From Candidatus Moraniibacteriota bacterium (GTDB lineage: Bacteria > Patescibacteriota > Minisyncoccia > Moranbacterales > GCA-2747515), in assembly GCA_023133275.1 (NCBI GenBank), contig JAGLWU010000027.1, forward strand, positions 1 through 57,370: DNA of 57,370 nucleotides, read 5' to 3'. The position numbers and the translations under genes are program-made. Below, in pieces: positions 10,471 to 55,163 of this stretch; the first letter of the stretch is position 1; each line of letters begins with the position of its first letter. Below the pieces are notes generated by a model. The model was not told the origin of the DNA and made no database searches. It saw only the letters and a program-made list of their open reading frames with translations.

Positions 10471-10492
10471 AAAAAGTCCGTGCGGCGAGCAC
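10471..10492 (+). repeat. 21-nt GC-rich intergenic motif
   Basis: AAAAAGTCCGTGCGGCGAGCAC, 5 nt after the TPR gene stop and 107 nt upstream of ychF. Confidence 0.8.
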
Positions 10493-10598: not shown

Positions 10599-11651
10599 AT
10601 GGCATTGCAAGTTGGAATTGTTGGTTTACCAAATGTGGGGAAGTCGACTTTGTTTAAGGCGATTACTAAAAAAGCGGTGGATATTAATAATTATCCGTTT
10701 TGTACGATTGAGCCGAATGTTGGTGTGGTTGAGGTTCCGGATGAGCGGATGGAAAAATTGAGTAAGCTTTCTGGTTCGCGGAAAATTATTCCGGCGATTA
10801 TTGAGTTTGTGGATATTGCGGGATTGGTTGAAGGTGCGTCGAAGGGTGAAGGTTTGGGAAATAAATTTTTGGCGAATATTCGTGAGGTGGATGCAATTAT
10901 TCAGGTGGTGCGTGTTTTTGAGAATGGAAATATTACGCATGTGCATGATAATGTTGATCCGATGCGAGATATTGAAGTAATTGAAACTGAATTGATGTTG
11001 GCGGATATAACGACGGTTGAGAAAACGATTGCTCGAGTGGAAAAATTAGTTAAAAGTAATGACAAGAATGCAGTTTCTCAATTGGAATTGGTGAAAAAAA
11101 TTCAAGATGCTTTGAATGATGGGAAGTTGGCTCGAACTGTTGAATTTGATTTTGAGCATCAACCGAGTAGTCAGATTATTGGGGAGATGAGTTTGTTGAC
11201 GATGAAGCCGATTCTTTATGTTTATAATGTTTCTGAATTGGAAGAATCTTTGGATTCTGAATTGGAGAATAGACCGCATGTGAAATTGGATATTAAAATT
11301 GAGGAGGAACTTATGGATTTGAGTGTGGAGGAAGCTACGGAGTTGGAATTGGTTTCTCATTTGAGTGATTTGATTAAGGAGGCTTATGCTTTGTTGGGAT
11401 TGCAGACTTATTTTACGACGGGCGAGGTGGAGACTCGAGCTTGGACGATTAGGGTTGGTGCGACGGCTCCTGAGGCTGGGGCGGCGATTCATACTGATTT
11501 TCAGGAGAAGTTTATTCGGGCGGATGTGGTGCATTGTGATAAGTTGGTTGAATTGGGTTCTTGGGGTAAGGCTCGGGAGACTGGTGATTTGCAGACGGTG
11601 GGGAAGGATTATGTGATGGTGGATGGTGATGTTGTTGAGTTTAGGGTTTAA
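10599..11651 (+). CDS. ychF: Ribosome-binding ATPase YchF (Obg-family)
   Basis: G1 motif GIVGLPNVGKSTLF, a central coiled-coil insertion and a C-terminal TGS domain. Internal antisense ORFs are artefacts. Confidence 0.9.
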   Translation: MALQVGIVGLPNVGKSTLFKAITKKAVDINNYPFCTIEPNVGVVEVPDERMEKLSKLSGSRKIIPAIIEFVDIAGLVEGASKGEGLGNKFLANIREVDAIIQVVRVFENGNITHVHDNVDPMRDIEVIETELMLADITTVEKTIARVEKLVKSNDKNAVSQLELVKKIQDALNDGKLARTVEFDFEHQPSSQIIGEMSLLTMKPILYVYNVSELEESLDSELENRPHVKLDIKIEEELMDLSVEEATELELVSHLSDLIKEAYALLGLQTYFTTGEVETRAWTIRVGATAPEAGAAIHTDFQEKFIRADVVHCDKLVELGSWGKARETGDLQTVGKDYVMVDGDVVEFRV

Positions 11652-12162: not shown

Positions 12163-14367
12163 ATGAAAAAAAGAATAATAATTTTGGGAGTAATAATCTT
12201 AATAATAATCGCTTCAGTTTGGGCAGGGCTAAAGTTTTTTAAAAAACAAATAATTACTTTTGAAACAGTGAAAATAATCTCTTTCGATTTAACAAAAAAC
12301 AGTCACGTAAAAGATGAATCAGTCGCATCAGGAACAATTATTTCCAAAGACGGATTAGTCCTAACCAATCATCACGTAGTAACAGACGAAAACGAAGAAA
12401 ATTATGAAGTGTTTGGAATTTGCATTGTTGAAGACGAAGAGAAAAAACCAAATTGCACGTACACCGCATCTTTGATCGCAAAAAATGAAAGTTTAGATAT
12501 CGCTTTGTTACAAATAAATGACAAAGATATTTTTAGTGAAGATGTTAAAAATTTTAACTATTTAGATTACAAAGGCAAAAAAATTGGAATGGATGAGGAG
12601 GTAAATGTAATCGGTTTTCCGGTGATCGGAGGAAAAACAATTACTTCAACGCAAGGACAAATTAGTGGTTACGAAGAAAAAGAAGGGACTAAATTTTTAA
12701 AAATAGATGCAAAGATTGATCAGGGAAATTCTGGCGGAACGGTAAAAAATTCTCAAGGGAAGTTTGTGGGTGTGCCATCTTTTTTGAAAAGTAATTATGA
12801 GACGTTGGGTTACATTATTCCCTTGGAGGCGGTGCGGGATTTTATTGAAGAAAATGTTGAAAAAGATTCAGAAAAAGATGAAATGGCAATTGATTTGTTA
12901 AATAAGTTTTTGCAGAAAAAATATGATGCGGAAGAAAATCGGATTTATCGTTCTAGCTTTTATCCATATTTTGAAGTAAATATTCCAGAGGTTTGGGAAG
13001 TTGAGTATGTTAATGCGGAAAGTATTTTTTTGAAACAGATAATTAGTGGTAATGATTTAGTATTTTCAATAAGAATGGGGCGAGGTAGTTTTGATTTACC
13101 ACAAGAATATATTAATATTAATTTAGAACGAATAGAAAAAAATAAACATCAGTTAAAAAATTACAACAGAAAAGATCTTAAATTTAACGAATTTGATGGA
13201 TTTAAAATTGAGTCTGAAATGATGGGTGAAAAAAGAGCTATTTTTGTAGGAATAAGAGAAAATGCATTATTGTCTTATAATTATAGTTATTCTGTGGAAA
13301 TTGAAAGTGAAAGTAAAGAAATGATTAAGGAAATTTTAGATTCCATGACTTTTTTAGATAAAGAAAATGATACTGAAAAAAATAAAAGGCAGGGATTTAA
13401 CAAAAATCCAAAAGCCAGTATTGAAACTTTTGATAGTTTTTATATTTCTTATATTGATAATAATATAGAAGATCAAGATTTATTATTTTATATCACTTCT
13501 CCAGATTTTGTTGAAATGAAATTTCAGATTTCTGAGAAGTTTTTACCGAGAGATTTTTGGAACATGTCGGAGGAAGAAATTTTTGATAAACGTTTGCAAG
13601 GATTATCTCGAACTTACGCTATAACGGACAAGTATAAAAATATTCAAATAAATGGAATGAAAGGTTTTGGATTCACTTATTCCTACATTTTTGATGATGT
13701 AAAAAAGCCGCACAAAGTTACTCAAATTTTTCTTTTCAAAAATAACAAAGAAGTTATAGAAATTATTTTTGACGATTTAGAAAAAAATCACGATGAAAAT
13801 ATTAAAACTTTTGTGAAAACCATTAGTACTTTTAAATATGAAAATAATGAGGGTGAAACTGTTTTGCCTCAGTTTAAAGCAATTTATAATGATTTGAAAA
13901 ATTATTTGTATGAAAGTGAAATTGGTAGTTTGATTAATCATGGAATTTTGGATTTTGAAGGAGAAAGTTTTATGCCAGAAAAAAGTATTTTAGGTAAAGA
14001 AGTTTTATTTTTTATTTTAAAAAGCAAAGTTTTTATTGAAAAAGGTAGAAATTCAACGAAAACTTTGGATGCGATTAAGATTGAAGGATTTTTTGGTTAT
14101 GCTGAAAGCAAAAAAATTATTGACACATCATTTAATCAAGAAGGAAATATTAATTTGGGTAGTGCGTTGAAAATAATGTGTAAAGTTTATGAATTGCCAG
14201 TTTGGGAGCCACCTTATGTCATTGAGGAAAACCTGCCTTATTTTAACAGGTGGTCTTCTATGAATGTATCAGTTAGCGTAGGTCGGAATGAGGTTTTGAC
14301 TAGAGGTAAGTTTGCAGCGGTTTTATATTATTTCATGCAGTCGGCGGGAGAGCGAAGGGATTTTTAG
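12163..14367 (+). CDS. Membrane-anchored trypsin-like (S1) serine protease with a ~500-aa C-terminal extension of unknown function
   Basis: N-terminal TM, catalytic triad context TNHHVV, DIALLQI and DQGNSGGTV. No PDZ domain. The C-terminal two-thirds has no recognisable motif. Confidence 0.65.
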   Translation: MKKRIIILGVIILIIIASVWAGLKFFKKQIITFETVKIISFDLTKNSHVKDESVASGTIISKDGLVLTNHHVVTDENEENYEVFGICIVEDEEKKPNCTYTASLIAKNESLDIALLQINDKDIFSEDVKNFNYLDYKGKKIGMDEEVNVIGFPVIGGKTITSTQGQISGYEEKEGTKFLKIDAKIDQGNSGGTVKNSQGKFVGVPSFLKSNYETLGYIIPLEAVRDFIEENVEKDSEKDEMAIDLLNKFLQKKYDAEENRIYRSSFYPYFEVNIPEVWEVEYVNAESIFLKQIISGNDLVFSIRMGRGSFDLPQEYININLERIEKNKHQLKNYNRKDLKFNEFDGFKIESEMMGEKRAIFVGIRENALLSYNYSYSVEIESESKEMIKEILDSMTFLDKENDTEKNKRQGFNKNPKASIETFDSFYISYIDNNIEDQDLLFYITSPDFVEMKFQISEKFLPRDFWNMSEEEIFDKRLQGLSRTYAITDKYKNIQINGMKGFGFTYSYIFDDVKKPHKVTQIFLFKNNKEVIEIIFDDLEKNHDENIKTFVKTISTFKYENNEGETVLPQFKAIYNDLKNYLYESEIGSLINHGILDFEGESFMPEKSILGKEVLFFILKSKVFIEKGRNSTKTLDAIKIEGFFGYAESKKIIDTSFNQEGNINLGSALKIMCKVYELPVWEPPYVIEENLPYFNRWSSMNVSVSVGRNEVLTRGKFAAVLYYFMQSAGERRDF

Positions 14368-23177: not shown

Positions 23178-23765
23178 ATGAAAGATTATCAAAATATCTC
23201 TGACAATCAGTTGGTGGAGTTTTCCAAAAAAAATCCTGATGATTTTGGTGAGTTAATTAAACGGTATCAGAATCAACTTTTTCATTATGTAAAAAGAATT
23301 TCTTATTTTTCTAATGAAGATATAGAGGATATTTTACAAAATGTTTTTATTAAAATTTACAAGAATCTAAATAATTTTGATCAAGATTTAAAATTTTCCA
23401 CGTGGGCTTATCAAATTACTCGCAATACTACAATTGATAATATTCGTTCAAAACAAGCACGACCGCAGACGGTAGATTTAGAACAAGATGATTTAGAAAG
23501 ATTTTTTCAGTCAGGAGAAAGTGTTGAAAGAAATATTTTTAAAAAAGATGATTGGAAAAAAATTAAAAAAATAATTTATGAAATGCCATTTAAGTATCGA
23601 GAGATTTTAGTTTTGAAATTTTTAGAGGAAAAGAGTTATGAGGAAATTATGGATATTTTGAAAAAACCGAAAGGTAGTGTGGCGACGTTGATTAGTCGAG
23701 GGAGGAAATTATTGGAAAAAGAATTAGAGAAAAATAATTTGTTTTTGGAAAAGCTGAGAAATTGA
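23178..23765 (+). CDS. ECF-type RNA polymerase sigma-70 family factor
   Basis: Region 2 FSTWAYQITRNTTIDNIR and region 4 HTH YREILVLKFLEEKSYEEIMDIL…SRGRKLL. Confidence 0.8.
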   Translation: MKDYQNISDNQLVEFSKKNPDDFGELIKRYQNQLFHYVKRISYFSNEDIEDILQNVFIKIYKNLNNFDQDLKFSTWAYQITRNTTIDNIRSKQARPQTVDLEQDDLERFFQSGESVERNIFKKDDWKKIKKIIYEMPFKYREILVLKFLEEKSYEEIMDILKKPKGSVATLISRGRKLLEKELEKNNLFLEKLRN

Positions 23766-23795: not shown

Positions 23796-23848
23796 TGTCA
23801 TTCTGAACGGATTTATTTTTTCGCTAAAAAAATAAAGGCGTGAAGAAT
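23796..23848 (-). repeat. Core repeat module, reverse orientation
   Basis: TGTCATTCTGAACG, AT hairpin TTTATTTTTTTAGCGAAAAAATAAA, then GTGAAGAAT. This is the reverse complement of the core found at 23903, 30867, 47065 and 55032. Confidence 0.7.
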
Positions 23849-23885
23849 TTTGATAAGTTTTTCTACTACTTTATTAATTTAAAAG

Positions 23886-24060
23886 TTTTATGATTTTCTG
23901 TAGGGGATTCTTCACTTCATAAATTTTTTTACAAAAAATTTATTACGTTCAGAATGACTGGTAATTTGAATGACAGGAGACTTTAATGACAATAAATGTT
24001 ACAGAGAATTTTTAGAATTTCGAAAAAGGTTAGATGGTGAAAAGCCTGTGCGGCGAGCAC
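23886..24060 (+). repeat. Composite intergenic repeat element, copy L1 (core module plus terminal 21-nt motif)
   Basis: Core GGGGATTCTTCAC, hairpin ATAAATTTTTTTACAAAAAATTTAT, CGTTCAGAATGACT (23903-23958). ATGACA sub-repeats. Ends GAAAAGCCTGTGCGGCGAGCAC at 24039-24060. Confidence 0.75.
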
Positions 24061-24103
24061 AATTTATTTTTTAAAGTTATAATTATTTTTTTAAATTAAA
24101 ATT

Positions 24104-24859
24104 ATGAGTAAAGATATTTCTGGACAAATAGTTGATAAAATTAAGAAAGAGAAAATTAGTTTGAGACCTCGAGTTTTTGATTATCGAAGTTTTCTTTTTT
24201 GGATAATTTTTGCTTTTTTAATTATTCTTGGCGGAATGTCTTTTTCACTGATTTTAATTTCGATTTTTAGTTTTGGTCGGGAAAATTTTCAATATGCTTC
24301 AGGTGGATTTTGGAAAATATTTTTAATGTCAATTCCTTATCTTTGGGTGATTTTTTTTGGTACTTTTGCTTATTTTGGACTGCGGGTTTTTCGTTCGACA
24401 AAGAGGGGTTATCGGCAAAATTTTTCGTTAATTTTATTGATTATATTTTTAGCGAGTTTTAGTTTTGGTTCCTTACTTCATATTTTTGGTTTTAGTAGGA
24501 GAATGCATCAATCTATGGTTGATCGAGTTCCTTTTTATCAAAACATAACTCCTACTATGGAAGGTCAATGGGCGAGACCAGATATGGGTATGTTGGGTGG
24601 TCAAATTATTAAAACTGGAAAAGATTTTATTGTTGTGCAAAATTTTCGGAGTAAAAAAATCACTGTGATTTATTCAAAGGAAAGTATTATTGGGGAAGAT
24701 GTTAAATTGGAAAAAGGTGAAAAAGTGCGAGTAGTGGGCAAAAGAGTTGATGAGGAGACTTTTGAAGCGAAAATTATTCAGTCTTGGGAGAATGATAGAT
24801 CTTTGTCGCCTCAAGATAAGGAGAAGATAATGAATTTAAGAAAAAAGAATATTAGATAA
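24104..24859 (+). CDS. Hypothetical polytopic membrane protein with a C-terminal soluble domain
   Basis: Four to five hydrophobic helices followed by a charged C-terminus. Lies downstream of the ECF sigma gene and could be an anti-sigma partner, but no signature supports that. Confidence 0.5.
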   Translation: MSKDISGQIVDKIKKEKISLRPRVFDYRSFLFWIIFAFLIILGGMSFSLILISIFSFGRENFQYASGGFWKIFLMSIPYLWVIFFGTFAYFGLRVFRSTKRGYRQNFSLILLIIFLASFSFGSLLHIFGFSRRMHQSMVDRVPFYQNITPTMEGQWARPDMGMLGGQIIKTGKDFIVVQNFRSKKITVIYSKESIIGEDVKLEKGEKVRVVGKRVDEETFEAKIIQSWENDRSLSPQDKEKIMNLRKKNIR

Positions 24860-28640: not shown

Positions 28641-28700
28641 AAAAAGCCCGTGCGGCGAGCCTGTCTGTTGTCTCGTCGACAGACACGGCAGACAGACACA
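28641..28700 (+). repeat. 21-nt motif copy followed by a GACAGAC-rich quasi-palindromic tract
   Basis: AAAAAGCCCGTGCGGCGAGC, then CTGTCTGTTGTCTCGTCGACAGACACGGCAGACAGACAC. Confidence 0.75.
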
Positions 28701-30850: not shown

Positions 30851-31023
30851 TCTATGATTCTCTGTGGGGGGATTCTTCACTGCGTAATTTTGTTTCACAA
30901 AATTACTTCGTTCAGAATGACAGTAAACTTTGAATGACAGAAAATTCAGAATGATAATAAACTTTTAGAATTTTAAACAAGAGGTCATGACCCCTTGTTC
31001 AGAAAAGCCCGTGCGGCGAGCAC
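30851..31023 (+). repeat. Composite intergenic repeat element, copy L2
   Basis: Core at 30867-30922, in which the hairpin reads GTAATTTTG-TTTCA-CAAAATTAC. ATGACAG sub-repeats. Palindrome AACAAGAGGTCATGACCCCTTGTT (30976-30999). Motif GAAAAGCCCGTGCGGCGAGCAC (31002-31023). Confidence 0.75.
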
Positions 31024-37120: not shown

Positions 37121-40100
37121 TTGTTTATAGATTTCGCAGTGGTTTTGTGGTATTATTTAGTTATGGAAAGAAATAAACTTAAAAAGTTTTTGAAAGTATT
37201 GGGTTATCAACCTCTTGATGGAGAGGTTGGTTTTTGGTTTAAAAAATATAATAATCATAATGATTATCAAATTATAGTTAAGGTTAATGATAATTTAAGA
37301 AATTCTAAAATTGATTGGGGAAATAAAATAAAAATTGGTAGAAAAAGTACCTCTAATTTTTCGCAAAATGAAACTTTTGTTGTTTTTGAATGTGTAAATA
37401 GATTATTAGAAAATGGAAATAAACCAGAAAGTTTAGTTTTAGAAAAAGAATGGAAGCTTGGTCATAAAGGAAAGGGATTTTTAGATATTCAGGTTTTAGA
37501 TGAAAGTGGAAAGAGCTTTTTGATGATTGAATGTAAGACTTTTGGTAAGGAGTACGATAAAGCTAAGAATGATACTGAAAAAGATGGAGGTCAGTTATTT
37601 GGATATTTCATTCAAGAAAGAAATACTAAATATATTTGTTTATATTCTTCTATTTTTGAGAATAATAAAATAAAATCTTTTAGTGATATTATAGTTGTTA
37701 ATAAAGAAATAAGAGGTTCTGAAAATAGTCGAGACGCTTTTGATTCTTGGCATCCTCAGATTTGGGAATCTAGGGGTGTGTTTGCTGTTGATGGAGTAAA
37801 ATTTAGAGGAATTGTTAAAGGGAATAAAGAAAATGATTTAGTGGACTTAACTGAAAAAGATGGAGGTAATATTTATAATCGTTTTGCTGAAATATTAAGA
37901 AAAAATGTTGTTTCTGATAAAACAAATGCCTTCAATAAAATTTTTAATTTATTTCTTTGTAAAATCGTTGATGAATTTGAGACAAGAAAAGGAAATGAAT
38001 ATGAATTTCAGTGGAAAGATGGAGAGAGTAATGAAGATGTTTTAATGCGTTTAAATGATTTGTATAAAAGAGGAATGTCCAGATATTTAGATTTAAAGAT
38101 TGAGGCTGTGTCAGAAAAGGAATTTGATGAGGCACTTGAAAACTTTGAATACAATAAATCAAAAATTGAAAAATTATTTATTCGACAAAAATTATATTCA
38201 GGAAATGAATTTGCATTTAAAGAGGTTTTTGATAAAGAAAGTTTTAATGAAAATTGTTTTGTAGTTAGGGAGGTTGTTAAGCTTCTAGAAAAATATAGAA
38301 TAAAATACACAACCAAACAGCAATTTTTAGGAGATTTTTTTGAACGACTTTTGAACACGGGAATTAAACAAGAGTCAGGTCAGTATTTTACACCCACTCC
38401 AATTGCATCTTTTATTTGTAAATCTATACCTTTTAAGAAAATTATTGAGGATAAAAATAAAAGAGAAAAACCTTATTTTTTGCCTTATATTATAGATTAT
38501 GCTTCAGGAGCTGGACATTTTCTTACTGAGGCTATGGAAGAAGTTGATCATCATATTAAAGACATTGATGGAGATTGGGTTTTATGTGGAGAAAAACATA
38601 AAAAAGAATTTCTTAAAAATAAAGATAATTTTGATTGGGCGAGTGAATATATTTATGGTATTGAAAAAGATTATAGATTAGCAAAAACAACAAAAATCAG
38701 CACTTTTTTAAATGGTGATGGAGATGCTAATGTTATCAGGGGAGATGGTCTTGATAGTTTTGAGAAAAGTGATGTTTATAAAGGAAAGTTAAAAGAATTT
38801 AATTTTGAAAATGAAAATAGAAAATTTGATATTTTAGTTGCAAACCCACCTTATTCTGTTGATGGGTTTAAAACAACATTAAGAGATGGTAAAGATTCTT
38901 TTGAGCTTTATCCTTATCTTACAGATCAGAGTAGTGAAATTGAGTGTCTTTTCATTGAAAGGGCTAAACAGTTACTCACAGAGGGAGGTATTGCAGGTAT
39001 TATTCTGCCATCTAGCATTTTAACCAATACGAGAATTTACTCTAAGACTAGGGAGATCATTTTTAAGTATTTTAATATTATAGGTATTACGGAATTAGGA
39101 CGTAATACTTTTATGAAGACACCTACAACTACGGTTGTTTTATTCTTAAAAAGAAAAAATAATAAAGATTTTGATGGGATTTTTAAAAAAGTGAAGCAAA
39201 GTTTTGATAATCAAAAAGACATTACTATAAATGGAATTGAAAAAGCTTACTCAAAATATTTGTCTTATGTTTGGCGTGATGAAGATAGTCAAGTTAATTT
39301 TGCAGATTATAAAACTTTAATTAATAAAAATCCAAATAAAAAAATTAAAAATCATGAGATTTTTCAAGAGTATGAAAAAAAGATAAAAGCTAAAGATAAG
39401 CAAGAGAAGTGGCAAAAGATTCATGATTTAGAAAAAGAAAAAATAACTTATTTTTTGAATGTTTATAATCAAAAAGTTGTTTTAATAAAAACTGGTGAGA
39501 AAAAAGAAGAGAAGAAATTTTTGGGTTACGAGTTTTCAGATAGACGAGGAGGTGAAGGAATTCATTCACTTCAAAGAGGTGAGGACATTAGTAAATGCAC
39601 TCAGCTTTTTGATGCTAAAAATCTTTACAATTCAGAAAAGGCTAGTACTTATATTTTGGAGGCTCTTGAGGGAAAAAAAGAAAGAAAAATTCCAGAAAAA
39701 TTAAAGGAAAATATTAGTCGTGTTGATTTGATTGATATGATGACTTTTGATCGTATTGATTTTGAGAAAAGTATTAATTTGAATGTTAAAAAAAAGATTA
39801 AAATTAAGAGTAAATGGGATTTTGTAAAATTAGAAACTGTTCTTTTTGAACAGCCTAAATCTAAAATAAAAGTAAAAACAGTCAATGACACAGAAAATGG
39901 AATTTATAATTTTTTTACCAGCGGTGAATCTATTTTAAATTTTAATAAATTTTTAGTAGATGGGAAAAATATATATCTTTCTACGGGAGGCAATGCCATT
40001 ATTAAATTTTTTGATGGAAAAGCAAGTTATTCTACAGATACTTTTGTTATACAAAGTAAAAACGAAAATTTAATAAAAACAAAATTAATATTTTATTTTA

Positions 40101-40837
40101 TTGAATATATAATTAAAGATATTGATAAATTTTATTTTAAAGGACAGGGATTAAGACATTTGCAAAAATCTGATTTTAGAGAAATAAAAATTCCTCTCCC
40201 ACCAATAGAAATTCAACAAAAAATTGTGGATGTGATTGAGTCTTTGGAGAAAAAAGAGAATGAGATAAAAAGGTCAATTAAAGTTATGAGGCAAGAAATT
40301 AGTAAAATTATTAATAATATTTCAGGGGAAGAAAAAACTTTAGAGTCTATTTGTGAAGATATTTTTGCTGGAGGAGATAAGCCAGAAAAATTTTCATATG
40401 AAAAAACAGAGGAATTAAATATTCCAATTTATGCTAATGCAGTAAAAAACAATGGATTATATGGCTATACAAATGTTTATAGAGTCAATAAGCCTTCTGT
40501 GACAGTTTCGGCAAGAGGTACAATTGGTTTTCCTATTGCAAGAAATGAAAAATTTTATCCTATAGTAAGATTAATTGTTATTATTTCTGGCGAACGATTA
40601 AAAAATAAATATTTGGAAATCGTTTTAAAAAATGCAAACATAGTTTCGAGTGGGACAAATATTCCACAATTAACGGTTCCAATGGTTCAGAATATGAAAG
40701 TTCCTTTTTTGCCTTTTTCTAAACAACAAAAAATAGTTTCTCAAATTGAAAAGATTGAAAATAAAATTTCGAAATTAGAAAAAGAATTGGAAGAAGTTCC
40801 AAAGAAAAAAGAAAAAATATTGAAAAAATATTTGTAA
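37121..40837 (+). CDS. Single-polypeptide restriction-modification enzyme (Type IIB/IIG-like). N-terminal PD-ExK nuclease, gamma-class N6-adenine methyltransferase, and two HsdS-like target-recognition domains.
   Basis: Nuclease motif LDIQVLDESGKSFLMIECK. MTase motif I (X) GQYFTPTPIASFI and motif IV LVANPPYS. The C-terminal half has two TRD-like repeats separated by coiled-coil conserved regions (…LKIPLPPIEIQQKIV…, …VPFLPFSKQQKIV…). No helicase/ATPase. Start is TTG at 37121 with a GGGGAG RBS; the alternative is ATG at 37163. Confidence 0.75.
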   Translation: MFIDFAVVLWYYLVMERNKLKKFLKVLGYQPLDGEVGFWFKKYNNHNDYQIIVKVNDNLRNSKIDWGNKIKIGRKSTSNFSQNETFVVFECVNRLLENGNKPESLVLEKEWKLGHKGKGFLDIQVLDESGKSFLMIECKTFGKEYDKAKNDTEKDGGQLFGYFIQERNTKYICLYSSIFENNKIKSFSDIIVVNKEIRGSENSRDAFDSWHPQIWESRGVFAVDGVKFRGIVKGNKENDLVDLTEKDGGNIYNRFAEILRKNVVSDKTNAFNKIFNLFLCKIVDEFETRKGNEYEFQWKDGESNEDVLMRLNDLYKRGMSRYLDLKIEAVSEKEFDEALENFEYNKSKIEKLFIRQKLYSGNEFAFKEVFDKESFNENCFVVREVVKLLEKYRIKYTTKQQFLGDFFERLLNTGIKQESGQYFTPTPIASFICKSIPFKKIIEDKNKREKPYFLPYIIDYASGAGHFLTEAMEEVDHHIKDIDGDWVLCGEKHKKEFLKNKDNFDWASEYIYGIEKDYRLAKTTKISTFLNGDGDANVIRGDGLDSFEKSDVYKGKLKEFNFENENRKFDILVANPPYSVDGFKTTLRDGKDSFELYPYLTDQSSEIECLFIERAKQLLTEGGIAGIILPSSILTNTRIYSKTREIIFKYFNIIGITELGRNTFMKTPTTTVVLFLKRKNNKDFDGIFKKVKQSFDNQKDITINGIEKAYSKYLSYVWRDEDSQVNFADYKTLINKNPNKKIKNHEIFQEYEKKIKAKDKQEKWQKIHDLEKEKITYFLNVYNQKVVLIKTGEKKEEKKFLGYEFSDRRGGEGIHSLQRGEDISKCTQLFDAKNLYNSEKASTYILEALEGKKERKIPEKLKENISRVDLIDMMTFDRIDFEKSINLNVKKKIKIKSKWDFVKLETVLFEQPKSKIKVKTVNDTENGIYNFFTSGESILNFNKFLVDGKNIYLSTGGNAIIKFFDGKASYSTDTFVIQSKNENLIKTKLIFYFIEYIIKDIDKFYFKGQGLRHLQKSDFREIKIPLPPIEIQQKIVDVIESLEKKENEIKRSIKVMRQEISKIINNISGEEKTLESICEDIFAGGDKPEKFSYEKTEELNIPIYANAVKNNGLYGYTNVYRVNKPSVTVSARGTIGFPIARNEKFYPIVRLIVIISGERLKNKYLEIVLKNANIVSSGTNIPQLTVPMVQNMKVPFLPFSKQQKIVSQIEKIENKISKLEKELEEVPKKKEKILKKYL

Positions 40838-46107: not shown

Positions 46108-46155
46108 AACAAGGGGTCATGACCCCTTGTTCAAAAAAGCCCGTGTGGCGAGCAC
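46108..46155 (+). repeat. 24-nt perfect palindrome plus 21-nt motif
   Basis: AACAAGGGGTCATGACCCCTTGTT (46108-46131) immediately followed by CAAAAAAGCCCGTGTGGCGAGCAC (46132-46155). Confidence 0.8.
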
Positions 46156-47046: not shown

Positions 47047-47284
47047 GTTTTATATTTTTCTTTGGGGGATTCTTCGCTACATAAATTTTTTTACAAAAAA
47101 TTTATTACGTTCAGAATGACAGATAAACTTTTGTAGTGAACGGTTTCAAACCGTTCACTACTGAAATTACCACGTTATCTTTGGGTTGAAAATTTTCAAC
47201 CCCTACATTGCAATAACAGTAATTTTTTAGAATTTCAACAAGGGGTCATGACTCCTTGTTCAGAAAAGCCCGTGCGGCGAGCAC
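47047..47284 (+). repeat. Composite intergenic repeat element, copy L3 (most elaborate: core, three perfect palindromes, terminal motif)
   Basis: Core 47065-47121 with hairpin ATAAATTTTTTTACAAAAAATTTAT. Palindromes TAGTGAACGGTTTCAAACCGTTCACTA (47134-47160), GGGTTGAAAATTTTCAACCC (47183-47202) and AACAAGGGGTCATGACTCCTTGTT (47237-47260). Motif at 47261-47284. Confidence 0.8.
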
Positions 47285-55011: not shown

Positions 55012-55163
55012 TAGTTTTATGATTTTCTGTGGGGGATTCTTTACTTCATAAAATTTTTCTAACGAAAATTTTATTACGTTCAGAATGACAATAAACTGGG
55101 ATAACAAAAATTTTTTAAAATTTCAAAAAATGTTAAATGGTGAAAAGCCCGTGCGGCGAGTAC
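55012..55163 (+). repeat. Composite intergenic repeat element, copy L4
   Basis: Core 55032-55090 with hairpin ATAAAATTTT-TCTAACG-AAAATTTTAT. Ends GAAAAGCCCGTGCGGCGAGTAC (55142-55163). Confidence 0.75.

Follow-up and report, generated by a model that had tools for sequence, protein, structure and literature searches.

A REP-type inverted pair inserted between an ECF-type sigma factor gene and its partner in a Moranbacteria genome, with a UPF0213 GIY-YIG nuclease as candidate enzyme

The gap downstream of an ECF-type sigma factor gene in a Candidatus Moraniibacteriota genome contains an inverted pair of repeat cores at positions 23797-23958 of the window, by which we mean the whole 57,370-nt stretch of DNA that was analysed. 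The pair is most probably a non-coding, tags-outside (HH) dimer of REP type, REPIN-like in its organisation, that was inserted at the junction between the sigma factor gene and its conserved partner, with a small UPF0213 nuclease as the best candidate for the enzyme. It belongs to a repeat family of conserved structure that is spread across phyla and in which the HH arrangement predominates, and insertions of its doublets are polymorphic in both directions between related genomes. A streamlined CPR (candidate phyla radiation) genome thus still gathers selfish intergenic repeats.

Structure of the inverted pair

The locus is made up of the following features, given in window coordinates.

23178-23765, + strand: ECF-type sigma factor gene (Pfam Sigma70_r2, 2.5e-17; Sigma70_r4_2, 2.1e-10)
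23797-23848, - strand: left arm, core E, a REP-type hairpin with the TGTC tag outside
23849-23906, + strand: spacer of 58 nt, two tandem non-palindromic boxes, TTTGATAAGTTTTTCTACTAC followed by M1
23886-23906, + strand: M1 box, TTTTATGATTTTCTGTAGGGG, the second spacer box
23907-23958, + strand: right arm, core A, a REP-type hairpin ending in ...TC-AGAAT-GAC
23959-24038, + strand: accessory mosaic modules (GAATGACA-like repeats and a tttagaattt box), common to copies B and D
23968-23975 and 23985-23991, + strand: GAATGACA-like repeats, 3' of the right arm
about 24006-24029, + strand: tttagaattt box, 3' of the right arm
24039-24071, + strand: M5 module, GAAAAGCCTGTGCGGCGAGCACA and a T-run, with a small GC hairpin at 24047-24061
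24077-24103, + strand: putative ancestral leader of the downstream gene with a TTATAAT -10-like box, outside the insertion
24104-24859, + strand: gene for a 251-aa membrane-type protein, a conserved neighbour of the sigma factor gene, without a Pfam match

The repeat finder delimits two arms of 52 nt each (23797-23848 and 23907-23958) that are 77% complementary and lie 58 nt apart, giving a unit of 162 nt within the 338-nt gap between the sigma factor stop at 23765 and the next ATG at 24104. The preliminary description had placed the two cores at 23796-23848 and 23903-23958, about 55 bp apart in an inverted repeat of about 160 bp, which is right to within a few bases. Each arm is a near-palindrome by itself (82% and 83%), and the termini of the pair are perfect 13-nt inverted repeats, GTCATTCTGAACG and CGTTCAGAATGAC. 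The 13-mer GTCATTCTGAACG has five exact copies in the window, compared with 0.83 expected even when two mismatches are allowed; a count of five was reached in none of 100 shuffles. The predicted fold energy of a 196-nt region containing the pair is -32.3 kcal/mol for DNA (z = -6.8) and -50.5 kcal/mol for RNA (z = -6.5), with long-range pairing from arm to arm, in agreement with the long-range inverted repeat proposed earlier. With its tags outside and a spacer of 58 nt, the pair is an HH dimer. Core E reads tGTC-ATTCT-GA-ACG...CGT-GA-AGAAT on the + strand, and its hairpin has a fold energy of -11.3 to -13.2 kcal/mol. A 34-aa ORF annotated in the public gene calls at 23970-24074 covers the GAATGACA, tttagaattt and M5 modules and is very probably repeat DNA mistaken for a coding sequence.

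The window contains five cores of about 52 nt, E in reverse and A, B, C and D in forward orientation, all of them intergenic and with unrelated housekeeping genes as neighbours. Singlets outnumber doublets by three to one. The singlets are as follows.

30872-30921, + strand: core B, in the gap between GT2 and HIT genes
47069-47120, + strand: core C, upstream of an SDR gene
55036-55089, + strand: core D, in the gap between HAD and LepA genes

All five cores fold alike into a hairpin of 18 base pairs in three tiers. The outer stem is ATTCT/AGAAT; beyond a 2-nt internal loop (TC/TC on one strand, GA/GA on the other) come 2-3 bp of middle stem and then an apical stem, AT-rich and 10-11 bp long, closed by a loop of 3-5 nt. 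The motif hairpin in oligonucleotide form is TGTCATTCTGAGCGAAGCGAAGAATCTC. The tag is TGTC in four of the five cores and AGTC in core A, which is also the only copy with GTAG just upstream of the stem; GTGG occupies this place in the others. When nine cores of the window and its closest relative are aligned, pairing holds in 98.1% of the cells, and seven pairs are altered on both sides, which was equalled in one of 500 shuffles. As a control, the partner columns were slid against each other, and pairing dropped to 39-58%. The outer stem is invariant in all nine Moranbacteria cores, and the apical stem co-varies and stays paired. Core A shares 98% identity with a core (L005_16628) at an unrelated locus of the related contig L005 and 96% with copy C of the window.

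The forward cores have further modules in common, in varying combinations, including the M1 box upstream of the core (TTTTATGATTTTCTGTGGGGG) and an optional hairpin (AACAAGGGGTCATGACCCCTTGTT). Since such modules recur in different combinations, this genome's intergenic DNA amounts to a mosaic of short modules. M1, the hp2 hairpin and M5 are found in the window and close relatives only. Core C shares its 812-nt gap with further, unrelated hairpins, tgtagtgaacggtttcaaaccgttcactac and gggttgaaaattttcaaccc (47121-47262), which suggests that the window has more repeat modules than those catalogued here. A perfect hairpin, AACAAG(A/G)GGTCATGACCCCTTGTTCA, seen in the window only, lies directly upstream of three M5 copies (about 30976-31001, 46109-46133 and 47238-47262). 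Elsewhere in the window, a gene for 1224-1238 aa (37121-40837) with N6_Mtase, Eco57I and Methylase_S domains adjoins recG on the opposite strand; its product looks like a fused restriction-modification enzyme.

Insertion at the sigma factor junction

Orthologues of the sigma factor gene were found at 60-89% identity. The downstream 251-aa protein is 69% identical to the neighbour in L007 and 27% identical to that in L009. The loci, ordered by the identity of the sigma factor, have the following gaps between the two genes.

L009: sigma identity 60%, gap 5 bp, without repeat
L008: sigma identity 67%, gap 8 bp, without repeat
L007: sigma identity 87%, gap 21 bp, without any module
L006: sigma identity 88%, gap 72 bp, M5 only
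L005: sigma identity 89%, gap 173 bp, one forward core and M5
Window: gap 338 bp, reverse core, spacer, forward core, extra modules and M5

Judged from these alignments, the pair is insertion-derived, and the junction it occupies originally measured 5-21 bp. The leader of about 27 nt before the downstream ATG aligns with the empty 21-bp gap of L007 and is for this reason taken to be ancestral. A second doublet gives the converse picture. In L005, a 152-nt doublet of like architecture lies between a PGA_cap gene and tRNA-Ala(GGC); its termini are GTCATTCTGAGCG...CGTTCAGAATGAC, and its two-box spacer is similar to that of the window pair and measures 48 nt. The same junction in the window measures 29 nt and is empty. 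The preliminary description had suggested that the arms might be the inverted ends of a miniature mobile element and that related genomes be compared for empty sites. That idea gains support, with orthologous sigma gaps of 5-21 bp that lack the block and an L005 doublet facing an empty site in the window, and the comparison is positive in both directions. Neither doublet shows a target-site duplication (flanks caattt/tggtaa in the window and agtgt/attta in L005); because the flanks are AT-rich and diverged, neither a duplication nor a precise excision footprint is definable there.

Through the insertion, more than 300 bp now lie between the sigma factor gene and its conserved partner, compared with 5-21 bp in close relatives. 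From this spacing alone (338 nt versus 5-21 nt), it is plausible that the operon linkage of the two genes has been broken, as had been proposed.

The doublet may also have been built in place, by the landing of core A, a forward core of the common type, beside an older resident core E that is flipped relative to the L005 copy. We regard this as a real possibility, though we lean against it. The arms form a heterodimer that is just 77% complementary, and their closest relatives differ, so assembly in place has to be considered. Core E and the forward core at the orthologous L005 locus (10626-10678) are reciprocal best matches at 89% identity, compared with 74-81% for other core comparisons, and they have opposite orientations; core A finds its 98% match at an unrelated L005 locus. 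Against this stands the L005 doublet, which has a like architecture and two-box spacer at a different site, and short-spacer, tags-outside doublets are the commonest arrangement across phyla. Furthermore, no mechanism was found for a flip in place. Insertion as a unit is the reading favoured by the similar L005 spacer and by how widespread such doublets are across phyla.

The M5 module and transcription across the gap

The M5 module (AAAAGCCCGTGCGGCGAGCAC, about 19 nt) has 10 copies in the window, compared with none expected. They start at 10471, 19740, 24039, 26602 (- strand), 28641, 31002, 43538, 46134, 47263 and 55142. All copies are intergenic; nine of the 10 share the strand of the genes, and a T-run follows most of them. 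M5 is found with or without a REP core, and it is limited to this lineage (the window, L005, L006 and L007), with no copy in any of about 200 cross-phylum loci. The module forms a 5-bp GC hairpin, which at the sigma locus is TGTGC-GGCGA-GCACA followed by ATTTATTTTT (24047-24061), and the consensus scan flags it as terminator-like. M5 occupies the same site of the sigma locus in L005 and L006 and is absent there from L007. One copy (28660-28700) is trailed by the GC-rich cctgtctgttgtctcgtcgacagacacggcagacagacac in place of the usual cac and T-run, and a similar variant, GCGATcctgcctgttcg, occurs in L005 at about 14120-14152 on the - strand.

The consensus terminator scan of the gap flags the M5 hairpin at 24047-24061 as its only site and detects no intrinsic terminator (GC-rich stem with U-tract) at the arms of the pair. 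A promoter scan of the gap gives six sites, with 6.0 expected from shuffles. The idea that the pair acts as a terminator or attenuator is not supported: the arms lack a terminator, the family has no orientation bias, and M5 already lies between the two genes in L005 and L006, both of which are without the pair.

More broadly, the pair could be a cis-acting RNA structure (terminator, attenuator or mRNA-stabilising 3' hairpin) that was selected to uncouple or tune the sigma factor gene and the gene downstream. The RNA fold of the region is strong (-50.5 kcal/mol, z = -6.5), all four forward cores of the window are co-oriented with their flanking genes, and the left arm is followed on the + strand by UUUUGAUAAGUUUUU. 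REPs have also been reported to act as RNA elements downstream of genes (Di Nocera, De Gregorio and Rocco 2013, PMC3733652). We nevertheless consider such a role improbable. The pair is missing from orthologous loci with 87-89% sigma identity, the element also stands between unrelated genes, the arms are negative in the terminator scan, the family as a whole lacks an orientation bias, and the terminator-like M5 hairpin between the genes is older than the pair. If the pair is an inserted REP-type dimer, an effect on transcription of the sigma factor gene and its partner would be a side-effect and not the reason why the element exists.

A motif family across phyla

A gapped-pattern scan of one genome per species, in which both conserved halves of the core were required and the apex was left free, matched at least 119 loci in many phyla. 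Among the matches listed are Bacteroidota, Chloroflexota, Acidobacteriota, Planctomycetota, Nitrospinota and KSB1, together with Omnitrophota, Chlorobi, Firmicutes, Saccharibacteria and other Patescibacteria. The ends (T/C)GTC-ATTCT-GA...GA-AGAAT are conserved across many phyla, and the matches listed have (G)AG-ATTCTTCAC...GTTCAGAATGAC-A in common. Their commonest form is compact, about 26 nt long, (G)AG-ATTCTTCAC-TNC-GTTCAGAATGAC-A, and often in tandem; it consists of 5 bp, the GA/GA loop, 2-3 bp and a loop of 3-5 nt. A subset of the matches carries an arbitrary self-complementary stem-loop at the apex, like the cores of the window. Outer-stem variants such as ATCCT/AGGAT, ATGCT/AGCAT, ATTCC/GGAAT and similar indicate that the outer stem co-varies between lineages.

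Around 80% of the motif instances are intergenic, with 76 co-oriented and 83 anti-oriented to the flanking genes; this lack of bias speaks against an RNA role tied to one strand in the family as a whole. Adjacent motif pairs are tags-outside (HH) in 135 cases, tags-inside (TT) in 65 and tandem in 83, and the spacer is 120 nt or shorter in 114 of the 135 tags-outside pairs. In the 566 instances, GTC is preceded by T in 82% and by C in 11%, the first two stem positions are AT in 533 (94%), and the 3-nt tail is CTC/CTN in 77%, CCC in 10% and CCA in 4%. In viral contigs the motif is rare, with six matches in 2.9 million.

Rfam returned no family for the window at gathering thresholds, for the gap at E-values up to 10 or for the motif arrays of other phyla; the best match to the gap, an AT-rich poxvirus element with E = 0.13, is spurious. 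A literature search with the motif sequences produced primer coincidences only. Hammerhead-like cores, integron attC sites and DNA-uptake sequences were set aside as possible resemblances, as the motif does not have their defining bases.

Association with UPF0213 GIY-YIG nuclease genes

Clustering of the ORFs in the 119 loci listed reveals no dominant neighbour family. In four of these loci, an ORF of about 95 aa directly beside the motif encodes a stand-alone GIY-YIG domain (PF01541, 1e-13 to 3e-17). The motif-flanked ORFs are UPF0213 members, with the PDB entries 1zg2 (BH0048) and 1ywl (EF2693) matched at 1e-8 and 7e-6. The GIY-YIG gene of L085 has a reverse motif whose end lies 5 nt before its ATG, and its stop codon is overlapped by a forward motif. 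On some Bacteroidota-like and other contigs (L113 at 500-1750, L145 and L165), the compact motif surrounds the GIY-YIG gene in long tandem arrays that mix the co-varying stem variants ATTCT, ATCCT and ATTGC.

As the four loci had been picked through the motif, a reciprocal test was run on loci picked through the protein. For this sample, 80 metagenome loci were chosen by GIY-YIG protein homology only and scanned for a generalised hairpin, GTC-X5-GA-N(5-70)-GA-rc(X5). Its density reaches 3.3-3.8 per kb in the 150 nt next to the gene, falls to 0.07-0.10 per kb beyond 1.5 kb and is 0.009 per kb in shuffles, so that the motif is enriched about 40-fold within 150 nt of UPF0213 GIY-YIG genes. A copy lies 150 nt or less from the gene in 44 of the 80 cases. 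Upstream copies are reverse in 29 cases and forward in 10, downstream copies reverse in 13 and forward in 30, which is again the tags-outside arrangement. The spacers of tags-outside pairs are bimodal, with a short, gene-less mode, none at 200-280 nt and 18 at 280-800 nt, and 16 of these 18 longer spacers enclose a GIY-YIG ORF. The distances between motif and gene are variable (11-190 nt at the start, -1 to 173 nt at the stop), and under a strict motif definition both flanks carry a motif in only 20 of 68 genes. With such variable distances and so few two-flanked genes, the geometry is nearer to that of a REP-flanked gene than to an insertion sequence with fixed ends.

Neither a GIY-YIG gene nor a remnant of one was found in the window, in 20 kb of its closest relative or in the Patescibacteria loci; the best hit of a permissive profile (E = 0.099) is noise. 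This absence is weak evidence, since the window covers little of the genome and there might be just one copy of the gene. For the Moranbacteria doublet, we infer the link to the enzyme by analogy, from the conserved ends and the arrangement it has in common with the gene-flanking motifs. NCBIfam has no model that matches the GIY-YIG proteins. The literature searched contained nothing that links GIY-YIG with repeats, REP, MITE or terminal inverted repeats, no paper with both 'GIY-YIG' and 'repetitive extragenic palindromic', and neither a function nor a repeat association for UPF0213, of which structures have been solved.

These associations point to the UPF0213 GIY-YIG nuclease of about 95 aa as a candidate enzyme of the (T/C)GTC-tagged REP superfamily, with gene-less doublets such as 23797-23958 as its non-autonomous derivatives, a proposal that we make tentatively and would not yet favour over its negation. 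Each arm consists of an unpaired (T)GTC tag, the ATTCT/AGAAT stem, the GA/GA loop and a lineage-specific, AT-rich apical stem. The element would spread as folded single-stranded or cruciform DNA, and a trans-acting enzyme would recognise it in this folded state. The best candidate for that enzyme is the small, Slx1-like UPF0213 protein, whose genes are motif-flanked in other phyla. The strong reciprocal association makes both the mobilisation of these REPs and the function of UPF0213 directly testable.

Two other modes of mobilisation are each very improbable. The pair could be a classical MITE, a deleted insertion sequence with terminal inverted repeats that was moved by a DDE transposase, and its perfect 13-nt terminal inverted repeats, length of 162 nt and lack of coding capacity would suit this. 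However, neither doublet has a target-site duplication, the gene tables of the window contain no transposase and no transposase family recurs in the 119 loci listed, and each arm is a free-standing hairpin that is also found alone. Neither the window nor about 200 loci yielded a parent insertion sequence with the same ends and a transposase, and the only gene recurrently enclosed by the motif ends in this material is the GIY-YIG ORF. The pair could equally be a GTAG-type REPIN moved by a RAYT (an IS200-like Y1 transposase), given that a hairpin of doublet plus spacer is the definition of a REPIN (PMC3116915) and that GTAG lies just upstream of the stem in copy A, but GTAG is not conserved (GTGG in the other copies), the conserved unpaired tag is (T)GTC, no Y1 transposase is present among the genes of the 57-kb window or recurs in the 119 loci listed, and CGTC-type REPs are reported without flanking RAYTs (PMC3733652).

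Comparison with known systems

The closest known relatives of an inserted REP-type dimer of this kind are the CGTC-tagged REPs of Di Nocera, De Gregorio and Rocco (2013, PMC3733652). As that paper describes them, these have an unpaired terminal CGTC (with TGTC and CCTC accepted as variants), a stem 8-9 bp long in which the first and second positions are complementary A and T, a loop of 4-5 nt, and an unpaired 3-nt tail with the consensus CCA at the untagged end. The paper also describes them as occurring mainly as tags-outside (HH) dimers with spacers mostly of 20-100 bp, in Proteobacteria, Chlorobi, Bacteroidetes, Spirochaetes and Thermotogae, and as including Neisseria dRS3 and Rickettsia RPE-4/RPE-6. 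It notes an apparent lack of a dedicated transposase, reports that the elements are not flanked by RAYTs, and states their origin and mobilisation as an open question.

The present family resembles these REPs in its unpaired tag, of which TGTC is a common variant, in the AT start of the stem and the mostly intergenic location, as well as in the dominance of HH dimers with 20-100-bp spacers; no RAYT is present among the genes of the 57-kb window or recurs in the 119 loci listed. Chlorobi and Bacteroidetes are hosts to the CGTC-REPs and are also found by our motif scan. The compact cross-phylum form is close to the stem and loop definition of the CGTC-REPs, whereas the window form lies outside it, with 18 pairs in three tiers and an AT-rich apical extension of 10-11 bp instead of a stem of 8-9 bp. 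A short unpaired tail is present as well, but it reads CTN/CCC and not CCA. The family further has a GA/GA internal loop that is conserved, tandem pairs make up an appreciable share of our sample, and Patescibacteria are not among the five phyla reported. By the described criteria, the cross-phylum family fits most of what characterises a CGTC/TGTC-tagged REP superfamily. On the same comparison, the pair in the window is classed as an extended, Patescibacteria-specific variant of the (T/C)GTC-tagged REP HH dimer, and not as a plain member, on account of its departures in stem length, tail and phylum.

The BIMEs of E. coli, the NIMEs of Neisseria and the pneumococcal BOX elements are intergenic mosaics in which a palindromic unit is combined with short conserved modules in variable order. 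The mosaic of core, M1 box, GAATGACA repeats, hp2 hairpin and M5 in the window is of the same kind, although its modules are unrelated to them in sequence and specific to the lineage.

On the side of the enzyme, the motif-flanked proteins share with UPF0213 and the prokaryotic Slx1 lineage a minimal domain without a DNA-binding extension. Dunin-Horkawicz et al. (2006, PMC1564403) described such proteins as the minimal form of the Slx1 lineage and did not mention repeats.

Finally, the REPIN/RAYT system offers the nearest parallel for the arrangement as a whole. In a REPIN, two inverted REPs fold together with the spacer between them into one hairpin (Bertels and Rainey 2011, PMC3116915). Long-hairpin doublets, compensatory changes in the stems, singlets beside doublets, and repeats on both sides of a single small gene for a nuclease or transposase are common to that system and the present family (PMC3116915). 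The two differ in that the tag here is (T)GTC and not GTAG, the flanked gene encodes a GIY-YIG protein of about 95 aa (UPF0213) and not a Y1 HUH transposase, and the mobility of the doublet is deduced here only from presence and absence between genomes. If the proposed role of UPF0213 is correct, the family would represent a REPIN/RAYT-like partnership built on a different nuclease fold.
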